A stretch of 64,000 bases of DNA, from contig JAZNXW010000020.1 in assembly GCA_045594085.1 (NCBI GenBank), positions 5,768 to 69,767 of the forward strand, read 5' to 3'. This document shows positions 7,983 to 10,139 of this stretch, one piece after another. The position numbers and the translations under genes are program-made. The notes under the pieces were generated by a model. The model did no database searches and had not been told where the DNA came from. It saw nothing but the letters and a program-made list of their open reading frames with translations. This DNA comes from Eubacteriales bacterium. GTDB taxonomy: Bacteria > Bacillota > Clostridia > Oscillospirales > CAG-272. How positions within the stretch are numbered: position 1 is the first letter of the stretch; every line of letters begins with the position of its first letter.

Positions 7983-9227
7983 TTATTTCTTTTCGCCCTT
8001 GATCTGCTCCCAATACTGTGCCGCGGCGCGCTCGGTCTTATTGTCACCAAAGCGGTAGTATTTCCTGTCCTTCAGCTCATCGGGCAGATACTGCTGGCGG
8101 ACATAATCATTCGGATAGTCGTGAGGGTACTTATATCCCTTGAAAAGAGGTGAGCGCAAGTGATCGGGAATGCTCTGTCCCAGACCAGCATTGACGTCCT
8201 CCATCGCGGCGTTCATCGCGGAATACGCGGTATTGGATTTCGGCGCGGTCGCAAGCATAACTGCCGCGTTGGCAAGCGGAACTCTTGCCTCGGGCATACC
8301 GAGCTGCTTTGCCGCCTCACAGCACGAATACGTTATCATCGCCGCCATCGGATACGCGGCACCGACGTCCTCACTTGCAATAACGAGCAAGCGTCTGCAT
8401 ACGGAAATGATATCTCCGCCCACAAGGAGCCTTGCAACGTAGAAAACAGCCGCATCGGGATCCGATCCGCGAATCGACTTCTGAAGCGCGGACAGAAGAT
8501 CGTAATGTACATCTCCGTCGCGGTCAAAATTGCCGAGAGATGACGGGGACAGCGCATCGAAATCCTCCGACGTCAGCTCACCGTCCGCGATATAAAACGC
8601 ATTTTCGAGAAGCGTGATTCCGTGACGCACGTCGCCTGCGGCATAGTCCGCAAGCTTCGTAAGCACCTCATCAGTTGCCGTTACCTCGCGTCCCTCCGAC
8701 TTACACATATACGAAAGCGCGCGTCGGAGTGCGGGAACAAGCTCCGATGACGGAACCGGACGGAACTCAAACACACTCGAACGTGAGAGAAGCGCCGAAT
8801 AGATGAAATGATACGGATTTTCCGTTGTGGACGCGATCAGAGTGATGCGTCCGTCCTCTATGTATTCAAGCAGAGATTGCTGCTGTTTTTTGTTGAAGTA
8901 CTGTATCTCGTCAAGGTAAAGCAATATGCCGCCCGAACCGAAAATATCGTTTGTACGGGATGCGACCTCCTTGACGTCGGAAAGCGACGCCGTCGTTGCG
9001 TTCAGTCGGTAAAGCGTCATCCCCGAATTCTTCGCGATGATATCCGCCGCCGTCGTCTTACCGGTACCGGGAGGACCGTAAAATATCATATTTGTGATGC
9101 GTCCCGCATCAATAAGGCGGCGGAGCGCGCCTTTTTCTCCGAAAAGGTGGCGCTGACCGACCATATCCTCAAAGCTTTTGGGACGCATAACGTCCGCAAG
9201 CGGTTGATTTTTCATTGTCATCTCCAA
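7983..9227 (-). CDS. rarA: Replication-associated recombination protein A (MgsA/RarA AAA+ ATPase)
   Basis: 414-aa ORF with Walker A GPPGTGKTT, Walker B LLYLDEIQ and a MgsA-type C-terminal helical domain. Confidence 0.93.
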   Translation of the reverse strand: MEMTMKNQPLADVMRPKSFEDMVGQRHLFGEKGALRRLIDAGRITNMIFYGPPGTGKTTAADIIAKNSGMTLYRLNATTASLSDVKEVASRTNDIFGSGGILLYLDEIQYFNKKQQQSLLEYIEDGRITLIASTTENPYHFIYSALLSRSSVFEFRPVPSSELVPALRRALSYMCKSEGREVTATDEVLTKLADYAAGDVRHGITLLENAFYIADGELTSEDFDALSPSSLGNFDRDGDVHYDLLSALQKSIRGSDPDAAVFYVARLLVGGDIISVCRRLLVIASEDVGAAYPMAAMITYSCCEAAKQLGMPEARVPLANAAVMLATAPKSNTAYSAMNAAMEDVNAGLGQSIPDHLRSPLFKGYKYPHDYPNDYVRQQYLPDELKDRKYYRFGDNKTERAAAQYWEQIKGEKK

Positions 9228-9305
9228 TTAACGTTGATTTATATAATTATACAGCCAAGCTCGAAAATAGTAAAGTAAAATCGAAAATAAAATTCCTTTT
9301 TACAA

Positions 9306-9377
9306 AAGCAAAAAAGCCCTCGGAGATCCCATTCTCCGAAGGCGCGGCTGCGAGCGCCGACAAATGGCCCGCAACAT
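9306..9377 (-). ncRNA. Candidate small RNA (about 70 nt), function unknown
   Basis: It follows the promoter at 9382-9411. It has a GGCGC-N8-GCGCC hairpin, then an 11-bp hairpin (9316-9343, one C.A mismatch) followed by U6 (A-run 9310-9315 on the plus strand). There is no ORF. Confidence 0.35.
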
Positions 9378-9381
9378 TTTA

Positions 9382-9411
9382 ATTATAGCATAGGTTCACG
9401 ACGGATTGCAA
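9382..9411 (-). promoter_or_regulatory. Sigma-A-type promoter (TTGCAA-18-TATAAT) on the minus strand
   Basis: The reverse complement of 9406-9411 is TTGCAA and of 9382-9387 is TATAAT, with an 18-nt spacer. Confidence 0.5.
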
Positions 9412-9486
9412 CACTTTTTTGTGCATCTCTTATACTTTCTCCGTTTTTCACAAAAACGAACCGTGAATTTCATACAAAATACCATA

Positions 9487-9515
9487 TTGCAATAGATGCA
9501 AAAATGTGATACAAT
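9487..9515 (+). promoter_or_regulatory. Sigma-A-type promoter with extended -10 (TTGCAA-17-TGaTACAAT)
   Basis: TTGCAA at 9487-9492, a 17-nt spacer ending in TGa, and TACAAT at 9510-9515. Confidence 0.55.
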
Positions 9516-9521
9516 AAAGTC

Positions 9522-9971
9522 ACAGAAAGGAAGGTACAAGCCTATGAAGACTTAACCTTAAACTTTCAGAGAAAAGCGAGGGCCTTAAAAAAGCCGCTTA
9601 AACGAGCTTCCGAATGAAAAAACGGTGATTAAAGTAATTCCGAACAAGTTTTGATCCCACTAATAAAAAGCCGGATCAGAAATCAAAAGGAACAAATAAT
9701 CTTCTTTAGAAAGTAAAACAATTTCGTCTTTTACGGAAAGAAAACTAAAAGAACCGACCAATCAAAAACGAACCTGTGATACGTGATCGAAAGACACAAA
9801 ATCAAACGACAGGATCGAGAAGAAATAAGGTTTCATACGTTTCCGAAAATCGGCTGAGTAAAAGACAGATAAACGAAAGACGAGGAATAAAAAAGATGTT
9901 AGATATCAAGAATCAGGAGTGAGCCTTGATTGCAGTATTTAAGATGCAGTCAAGGCTCACATTGTTTTTGT
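9522..9971 (+). ncRNA. Candidate non-coding transcript of about 450 nt, A/purine-rich, function unknown
   Basis: It is bounded by the promoter at 9487-9515 and the 16-bp-stem terminator at 9919-9971. No ORF of 60 aa or more exists in any frame. The plus strand is strongly A-rich, unlike its surroundings. Confidence 0.4.
9919..9971 (+). terminator. Intrinsic terminator (16-bp stem)
   Basis: GTGAGCCTTGATTGCA-N10-TGCAGTCAAGGCTCAC (one T.G wobble pair) followed by ATTGTTTTTGT. Confidence 0.75.
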
Positions 9972-9982
9972 ATTCTATTCGA

Positions 9983-10005
9983 ACGGCGTGAGCCGTTTTT
10001 TTGTT
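9983..10005 (+). terminator. Second small plus-strand intrinsic terminator
   Basis: ACGGC-GTGA-GCCGT followed by TTTTTTTG. Confidence 0.5.
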
Positions 10006-10010
10006 TGGGA

Positions 10011-10045
10011 AAACAAAAAAGCACTCGCAAATGCAAGTGCTTTTT
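10011..10045 (-). terminator. Terminator of tRNA-Arg (hairpin flanked by A- and T-runs, usable in both directions)
   Basis: GCACTCGC-AAAT-GCAAGTGC (one C.A mismatch), with AAAAAA upstream and TTTTT downstream on the plus strand. Confidence 0.65.
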
Positions 10046-10118
10046 CGCGCCATGCAGGATTCGAACCTGCGACCTACCGGTTCGTAGCCGGGCACTCTAT
10101 CCACTGAGCTAATAGCGC
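10046..10118 (-). tRNA. tRNA-Arg (anticodon ACG)
   Basis: The reverse complement GCGCTATTAGCTCAGTGGATAGAGTGCCCGGCTACGAACCGGTAGGTCGCAGGTTCGAATCCTGCATGGCGCG folds as a cloverleaf. The anticodon loop is CTACGAA and the T-loop is TTCGAAT. CCA is not encoded. Confidence 0.9.
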
Positions 10119-10139
10119 ATCTCTCAATCGAGCTTACCT

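Follow-up and report, generated by a model that had tools for sequence, protein, structure and literature searches.

In the leader of the Bacillus subtilis vmlR gene, a 30S subunit on an upstream open reading frame (uORF) of three codons gives a toeprint at +16, and the stalled initiating ribosome remodels the adjacent helix and the downstream RNA; the residues encoded by uORFs of this type vary between species (MIN, MDN, MDK, and MRK) (PMC9226507). We describe here a putative RNA gene that begins with a comparable frame. It lies at positions 9487-10005 of a 64,000-nucleotide stretch (the window) of contig JAZNXW010000020.1, assembly GCA_045594085.1, from a Eubacteriales bacterium of the order Oscillospirales (family CAG-272). 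As read from the sequence, the order of its parts is a promoter, P(+); a Shine-Dalgarno sequence (SD1) with a 3-codon open reading frame (ORF1); helix P1 with domain I; helix P2 with domain II; a second Shine-Dalgarno sequence (SD2) with an 8-9-codon frame (ORF2); a terminator, T1; and a further terminator, T2. Taken as one composite statement, namely that the locus encodes a structured RNA of ~450 nt and stands alone as a gene, that ribosomes set the stability or the ends of this RNA, and that it acts in trans, we judge the case to be evenly poised.

The 5' end of the RNA is like that of vmlR and of the related leaders that sense lincosamides, streptogramin A, or pleuromutilins (e.g. Listeria lmo0919), in that a Shine-Dalgarno (SD)-led frame of exactly three codons with variable residues is set directly against an RNA helix, with a terminator hairpin downstream. 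In vmlR the uORF is part of the anti-antiterminator, and the leader, 219 nt long, gates expression of an ABCF resistance gene; ORF1, by contrast, stands just before the helix that closes a folded body of ~300 nt. There is here no regulated downstream gene and no sequence similarity to vmlR.

Firmicute SD-type 5' stabilisers (the cryIIIA STAB-SD, the SP82 polypurine stabiliser, and the ermC leader with its stalled ribosome) protect Bacillus mRNAs from 5'-to-3' decay. The locus shares with them a near-perfect complement of the 16S 3' end within a few nucleotides of the 5' end, where a bound ribosome or 30S subunit would be expected to hinder such decay. The known stabilisers precede real coding sequences, whereas here a non-coding body and a conserved 3-codon frame follow and stabilisation is a prediction. 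In leader-peptide attenuators such as those of cat-86 (MVKTDKISS), cmlA (MSTSKNAD), and trpL, a short ORF overlaps a hairpin. ORF2 resembles these in being a 9-codon ORF with its own SD, placed so that a ribosome could melt the downstream hairpin. However, the hairpin of cat and cmlA masks the SD of the next gene, whereas the hairpin here is a terminator followed by another terminator, with no controlled gene.

Two further groups of RNAs invite comparison. The dual-function small RNAs (sRNAs) RNAIII/hld, SR1/SR1P, and SgrS/SgrT likewise combine a transcript of regulatory-RNA size with a small frame, but their ORFs have 26-43 codons and encode peptides of known function, as against 3 and 8-10 codons here. 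OLE, ROOL, GOLLD, raiA, and HEARO, together with the housekeeping RNAs 6S, tmRNA, SRP, and RNase P, are also free-standing Firmicute RNAs of several hundred nucleotides with comparatively supported helices; none of them is known to carry conserved SD-led mini-ORFs at both ends.

The locus occupies the gap at 9228-10045 that is bordered by rarA (7983-9227, minus strand) and a tRNA-Arg gene (10045-10119, minus strand). A preliminary description of this DNA, made from the sequence by eye, had reported that the gap holds no ORF of 60 or more amino acids, and this was confirmed. The stretch had also been called A-rich and strand-asymmetric, and indeed the A content of 44.8% over 9522-9921 is the highest 400-nt value in the 64 kb, where the maximum elsewhere is 41.2%. 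The plus strand of this segment is 64% purine with an AT skew of +0.40, a composition unlike that of the flanks. A consensus scan recovered the proposed extended -10 promoter with its 17-nt spacer (9 of 12 matches plus the TG), and both the -35 and the extended -10 of P(+) are kept in homologues from dozens of genera. Transcription would start near position 9522. The suggestion that this is a discrete orphan promoter-to-terminator unit was supported.

A BLAST search with 9480-9975 recovered the block in full from 6-7 of the 18 genomes of the genus (74-81% identity), and its two ends from 107 of 401 same-family genomes, covering 46 of 97 genera. A covariance model, R1, was built for the 3' core (the P2 3' strand, SD2, ORF2, and T1) from 55 sequences, with the genus of the window excluded. 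Its sole true match in the window was full length (model positions 1-123) at 9855-9974 on the plus strand, with a score of 84.8 bits and E = 1.3e-17. R1 matched 105 of the 401 same-family genomes, and in a sample of 401 genomes from across the order it matched 67, in at least 10 other families. An exact-pattern scan with GAGGA-N6-9-GATGTTAGATAYCAAGA, using one genome per species, returned at least 120 stretches. Among the matches listed, the titles were all of metagenome-assembled genomes (MAGs) from ruminant, bird, or other animal guts, and the labels were Clostridia, Oscillospiraceae, Acutalibacteraceae, Eubacteriales, Ca. Flemingiibacterium, and Ca. Avispirillum. The same pattern was found in 0 viral contigs. 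The RNA is single-copy in the window genome and in most others. A few genomes have tandem 3' cores, two or three copies at ~550-590 nt spacing (G042:C45:2107-3404 and G137:C8:2105-2774); since these cores are complete, tandem duplication of the whole element does occur.

The 83 distinct full-length elements that were collected are 241-663 nt long (median 421), contain 31-44% A and 15% C, and are all ORF-free; their middles vary by indels of any length, 1-nt indels included. The window locus combines the R1 match, the promoter-SD1-ORF1 arrangement, P1 and P2, and an ORF2 stop inside T1 with T2 beyond, and we consider it very probably a real member of an RNA family with this architecture. When the window was compared with Rfam 15 (4227 families) only tRNA passed, all other matches being at least 17 bits below threshold. 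The 14 homologous loci submitted to Rfam gave 0 matches at gathering, and a typical member had none at E < 0.7. The preliminary statement that this is not OLE, ROOL, or GOLLD agrees with this lack of any Rfam covariance-model match in the window or its homologues. No description of the RNA was found in the literature that could be searched. The family is undescribed and is spread across an order of gut Clostridia; each of its components has a precedent, whereas no free-standing structured RNA is known to combine them.

The distribution of the family also bears on whether the stretch is what is left of a protein gene, or of a prophage or other mobile element beside tRNA-Arg. Its composition is unlike that of the flanks, and it follows the 3' end of a tRNA gene, where integration is common. 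Yet the element is not beside a tRNA in other genomes, is single-copy in the window genome, gave 0 matches in the pattern scan of viral contigs, and has the same ORF-free architecture in all 83 distinct elements. A decayed gene rich in Lys and Arg codons had been suggested, with an interrupted frame from 9510. The six frames of 9510-9975 contain 7-11 stops each, and their X-masked translations have no Pfam match at E ≤ 1; a long ORF is likewise missing from relatives in more than 40 genera, where the body shows indels of any length. A remnant of either kind is extremely improbable. An alternative genetic code was also rejected on reading the sequence: the stops after ATG 9544 are mixed, 1-nt indels separate close relatives, and the flanking genes are normal under table 11.

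SD1 is invariant in the genus, has the family consensus GAAAgGaAGGUAC, and is a near-perfect complement of the 16S 3' end. The extended complement of the anti-SD, AGAAAGGAAGG, starts ~3 nt after the putative transcription start site (TSS), close to the 5' end as in a STAB-SD. Behind it, ORF1 has exactly three sense codons in 89 of the 97 SD-ORF1 modules found in the 83 elements, and two in a further 6. At least 36 different peptides are encoded by these modules (MYN, MYK, MKT, MRK, and others), and the stop is TAA in 69, TGA in 22, and TAG in 6. The length of ORF1 is thus conserved and its residues are not. The module of SD and 3-codon ORF is doubled in tandem in 14 of the 83 elements.

At the 3' end, ORF2 has the family consensus MLDIKSEQK* and an N terminus of MLD(I/T)K. 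Of 75 elements scored, 74 have their stop 24 or 27 nt from the AUG. This codon falls at positions 2-4 of the T1 stem; 63 sequences have UGA there, 5 have UAA, and 1 has UAG, each with a compensating change in the 3' arm, showing that this column is doubly constrained, as a stop codon and as a base pair. Codons 1-5 (ATG TTA GAT ATC AAG) are invariant at the nucleotide level save for one ATC/ACC site. Both mini-ORFs are under coding-type constraint, frame length and stop being kept while the letters change. On this pattern of conservation it is likely that ribosomes engage both frames.

The 16-bp terminator that had been proposed at the end of the stretch is present. In an alignment of 68 sequences, its 20 alignment pairs are 95.7% paired and 19 of them vary on both sides, with compensatory changes. 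Despite this covariation the T1 stem sequence GUGAsCCUUGAU (GUGACCCUUGAU) is unusually conserved. AUCAAG in ORF2 and CUUGAU in the stem offer a 6-nt alternative to T1 (read by eye), which is lost where ACC replaces AUC. A second terminator, unrelated in sequence, follows T1 by 20-60 nt in nearly all of 22 homologous loci inspected.

The body between the two mini-ORFs is predicted to be folded. The 454-nt transcript has a minimum free energy (MFE) of -104.4 kcal/mol, with z = -5.03 relative to dinucleotide shuffles, none of 100 shuffles being as stable. P2 was examined with RNAalifold and pair counts in the 68 sequences: its 8 pairs are 90-93% paired and both sides have changed in 7 of the 8, one column for example containing CG 49 times, UA 13 times, and UG 4 times. 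Over the whole 34-pair structure, pairing is seen in 91.2% of cells but falls to 40-52% if the partner is shifted by 1-3 columns, and the covariation is 0.367 against 0.08-0.12; 0 of 500 shuffles reached any of the observed measures. Global alignment could not align the P1 region, and P1 was for this reason assessed by duplex energy, pairing the 50 nt after the ORF1 stop with the 45 nt before P2. Cognate duplexes had a median of -23.0 kcal/mol and non-cognate duplexes -12.7 kcal/mol (Mann-Whitney p = 2e-18), and 86% of cognate as against 57% of non-cognate duplexes lay at or below -12 kcal/mol. P1 is thereby supported by a calculated energy, not by column-wise covariation. In 58 of 71 elements the ORF1 stop and the first P1 pair are separated by 0-9 nt, most often by 5. 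Domain II of most other genera contains a hairpin, UUCUC-NUUA-GAGAA, and a GUGUUU box; in the genus of the window both are missing, and the domain II insert is longer and richer in A. The positions of all features are given in Table 1.

Table 1. Positions of the features of the RNA locus and its upstream region in the window
Feature	Position	Strand	Details
Divergent promoter P(-)	9382-9411	-	-35 TTGCAA 9411-9406; 18-nt spacer; extended -10 TGCTATAAT, hexamer 9387-9382
Putative short unit, ~70 nt	9306-9375	-	P(-) into terminator 9343-9316 plus U-run (terminator scan); transcription inferred
Inverted repeat TTCAC-N11-GTGAA	9447-9467		Inside conserved upstream box
Promoter P(+)	9487-9515	+	-35 TTGCAA 9487-9492; extended -10 TGTGATACAAT 9505-9515
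SD1, GAAAGGAAGG	9525-9534	+	Extended SD, ~3 nt from putative 5' end
ORF1	9544-9555	+	ATG AAG ACT TAA (MKT*); SD-led 3-codon mini-ORF
Helix P1	9562-9573 with 9702-9714	+	Closes domain I (9575-9699); first pair 6 nt after ORF1 stop; from MFE fold of window genome
Domain I hairpin	9649-9657/9673-9681	+	Covaries within genus
Helix P2	9724-9734 (UCGUCUUUUAC) with 9858-9869 (GUAAAAGACAGA)	+	11 bp, one bulge; closes variable domain II (9735-9857)
SD2, GAAAGACGAGGA	9875-9886	+	Core GAGGA 9882-9886, invariant in family
ORF2	9896-9922	+	ATG TTA GAT ATC AAG AAT CAG GAG TGA (MLDIKNQE*)
Terminator T1	9919-9971	+	16-bp hairpin 9919-9934/9945-9960, then U-rich tail
Terminator T2	9981-10005	+	GC-rich stem 9981-9998 plus U-run; sequence not conserved

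These results run counter to the preliminary impression of an RNA with little stable secondary structure, and they bear on the explanation first preferred for the locus, an unstructured sponge for a CsrA-, Hfq-, or ProQ-type protein that reads A-rich or GGA sequences. Such a sponge would suit the A- and purine-rich plus strand, and AG-rich tracts such as GAAAGAGAGGA resemble the AG-repeat preference reported for B. subtilis Hfq. It is at odds with a structured RNA, as judged by the fold z-score, covariation, and the P1 duplex test. The roughly eight GGA/AGGA motifs that had been taken as a binding signature come down to two conserved sites, SD1 and SD2, each 9-10 nt before a conserved AUG with a conserved frame; the other GGAs are not conserved, and no repeated hairpin-loop GGA units are present. 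We regard a sponge of this kind as very unlikely. What remains of the broader proposal of a protein- or ribosome-binding RNA is its ribosomal part, in the form of two extended SDs each with a conserved mini-ORF, but not the lack of structure. Recurrence of TTCCGAA had also been pointed out. Three copies do fall within 9608-9847 (240 nt), compared with 20 on both strands of the whole window, but the cluster is genus-specific and its copies sit in different helices, and short repeated words were rejected as functional repeats.

In the window genome, the P2 5' strand (9723-9732) can pair alternatively with SD2 (9875-9884) over 10 bp. This complement arises from a one-base insertion (GAAAGACGAGG versus GAAAGCGAGG in relatives), as a result of which the energy-minimised fold of the window masks SD2 rather than forming the conserved P2. 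The two pairings are near-isoenergetic in this genome, at -11.9 kcal/mol for SD2 masking and -13.7 kcal/mol for P2.

Masking of SD2 would be in keeping with a different reading of the 3' end, in which the ORF2 nonapeptide (MLDIKSEQK-like; MLDIKNQE here) is the product and the two domains are a long sensory regulatory 5' untranslated region. The conserved frame, start, and stop of ORF2, its invariant MLD(I/T)K N terminus, and the invariant SD2 would all be expected of a peptide gene. However, in more than 40 genera no synonymous substitution is seen in codons 1-5, which points to constraint at the level of the RNA, and residues 6-9 vary and co-vary with the stem. Nor is the masking conserved in the family, where the P2 5' strand has a median energy of -6.3 kcal/mol with SD2 as against -14.2 kcal/mol for P2, and a family-wide SD2-masking switch was ruled out by these values. 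A 9-residue cytosolic peptide with a function of its own also has little precedent. We consider it unlikely that the peptide is the product.

The genes that flank the RNA differ between genera and have diverse functions. The next downstream gene is on the same strand at 36 loci and on the opposite strand at 32, and for the upstream gene the numbers are 39 and 27. Because the flanking genes vary in both identity and orientation, the RNA is not a leader. A leader of a conserved downstream gene was ruled out by the same orientation and diversity of the neighbours, the gene downstream in the window being tRNA-Arg on the opposite strand. A sub-threshold match to SpF41, a Streptococcus sRNA, at 10013-10114 on the minus strand (35 bits, gathering 52) was rejected as an identity, as it comprises only tRNA-Arg and its terminator hairpin. 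The upstream neighbours at 66 loci include MATE (6, directly upstream) and MFS (3) transporters.

Among the 68 downstream loci, flavodiiron genes follow directly in 6, all on the same strand and at a distance of 69-260 nt from T1; these loci fall into two clades of 65-95% identity. Rubredoxin follows in 3 and rubrerythrin in 2. Loci with these genes or with the MATE genes include L043, L053, L070, L078, L089, and L132 (downstream), and L020 and L117. Neighbour counts are inflated by conserved synteny, and the link to redox genes could be functional or just clade synteny. The flavodiiron gene of L043 has a promoter-like sequence of its own, TTGACA-17-TAAAAT (read by eye). No ABCF or erm gene occurs among the listed neighbour families.

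These neighbours are relevant to the possibility that the family is a ribosome-dependent attenuator, a sensor of antibiotics or translation stress of the vmlR, cat-86, cmlA, or erm type, that has been orphaned in the window. The same-strand flavodiiron genes close behind T1, or rubredoxin or rubrerythrin genes at other loci, would then be controlled by gated read-through, and the SD-led 3-codon uORF of vmlR and the 9-codon ORF that enters a terminator in the manner of the cat and cmlA leaders would have direct counterparts. Against this stand the opposite-strand gene at 32 of the 68 loci, and in the window itself, the second terminator that nearly always backs T1, the separate promoter-like sequence at L043, and the absence of a linked resistance gene among the neighbour families listed. 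The distance from ORF1 to T1, 300-400 nt, is also far above that of known attenuators. An attenuator is in our view quite unlikely.

We return to a free-standing RNA on which ribosomes might act, and consider how they might do so. In this proposal ribosomes would load onto each end of a folded RNA that is otherwise non-coding. The geometry at the 5' end is a leader of 22 nt, an AUG at 9544, a +16 position at 9559, and a first P1 pair at 9562. An initiating ribosome on ORF1, with its leading edge at about +16, would cover nearly all of the leader and halt short of P1 without melting it, and could in this position shield the 5' end from a 5'-exonuclease. The two translocations that lead to the ORF1 stop would fray only the base of P1, and a frame of three codons would prevent the ribosome from entering the folded body. 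There would likewise be room for a ribosome on AUG 9896 just before T1, whose first pair is at 9919. On reaching the ORF2 stop this ribosome would unwind most of the T1 5' arm, and translation coupled to transcription could make T1 leaky. Leakiness of T1 under brisk translation would explain the ever-present backup, T2. On the mature RNA, each round of ORF2 translation would transiently free the conserved 3' arm. The half-life of the RNA and the conformation of its ends might in this way report on the supply or the arrest of ribosomes; a trans-acting function, such as the binding of protein or RNA, would reside in the two folded domains. This stabiliser and gating mechanism is offered tentatively, and we hold it with clearly less confidence than the engagement of the two frames by ribosomes.

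Several points weigh against the proposal. The predicted accessibility of the two Shine-Dalgarno sequences is only moderate, with pairing probabilities of 0.52 for SD1 and 0.40 for SD2, and the spacer between ORF1 and P1 ranges from 0 to 19 nt among the elements. Translation of the mini-ORFs is proposed from their conservation, and a role of the RNA letters of ORF2 codons 1-5 is at least as likely as one of the peptide. Transcription, its start site, and every mechanistic step are inferred. Three quarters of the same-family genomes have no R1 or BLAST match to the RNA, and its function must on that account be dispensable. The pattern scan named only uncultured MAGs as carriers. We also found no target, partner, or ligand: a BLAST search for antisense targets with the reverse complements of six conserved blocks against the 2.0-Mb assembly returned only chance 10-12-mers.

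Conservation extends upstream of the gene. About 130 bp 5' of the P(+) -35 are conserved across genera, as judged from 79 upstream regions from many genera, and this segment includes a divergent promoter, P(-). The promoter scan gave P(-) 10 of 12 consensus matches plus the TG, and its family consensus, TGTGATATAAT plus a -35, is kept in the 79 regions. P(-) is conserved but the sequence that it would transcribe is not, being a terminator alone in most genomes or else a neighbouring gene. In the window, P(-) is ~35 nt from an 11-bp terminator that lies just upstream of rarA. In three other species of the genus (L002:536-1306, minus strand; L003:1271-2038; and L006), a gene for a 256-residue XRE-type helix-turn-helix (HTH) protein with C-terminal membrane segments is found directly under P(-), between rarA and the module. 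This gene is missing from the window and from the genome G014. L002 has a second XRE-HTH gene on the other side of the RNA.

Between the two promoters, ending ~10 nt before the P(+) -35, is a conserved box with the family consensus ACAAAAAAT-nn-TTGTnAA-n-TTTTTACAA. Written as TTGT(G/T/A)AA-N-TTTTTACAA it is similar to the inverted repeats of Rex or CRP sites, although shorter by one base. An A-tract, which may be an UP element, occurs within 9447-9486 and in the homologous upstream regions. The box at 9447-9467 is a candidate site for a regulator or an UP element, and we treat its likeness to Rex or CRP sites as a lead only.

This box and the neighbouring genes suggest one specific version of the ribosome-gated RNA, namely a regulator of the redox or oxygen-stress response in strict anaerobes. 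A regulator bound at the Rex/CRP-like box would drive the very strong promoter, occupancy of the mini-ORFs would set the lifetime of the RNA, and the domains that act in trans would be exposed or hidden accordingly. This version would explain why several clades have flavodiiron, rubredoxin, and rubrerythrin genes as direct downstream neighbours. We think this version improbable. If true, the RNA would act as a sensor, linking translational status to the regulation of stress with no regulated gene in cis.

Oscillospirales-type Clostridia dominate rumen and hindgut communities, and almost no regulatory RNAs have been characterised in them. The RNA may rank among the more widespread undescribed RNAs of these gut bacteria, and R1 offers a means of annotating the "empty" gap of 0.5-0.8 kb that recurs in hundreds of MAG species. 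Its layout is new, in that two conserved micro-frames flank a folded non-coding body and no described RNA is so arranged. The family offers a natural test case for ribosome-mediated 5' stabilisation. If ribosomes do gate the RNA, the sensor logic of leader peptides and uORFs would extend from cis-acting leaders to a free-standing RNA.

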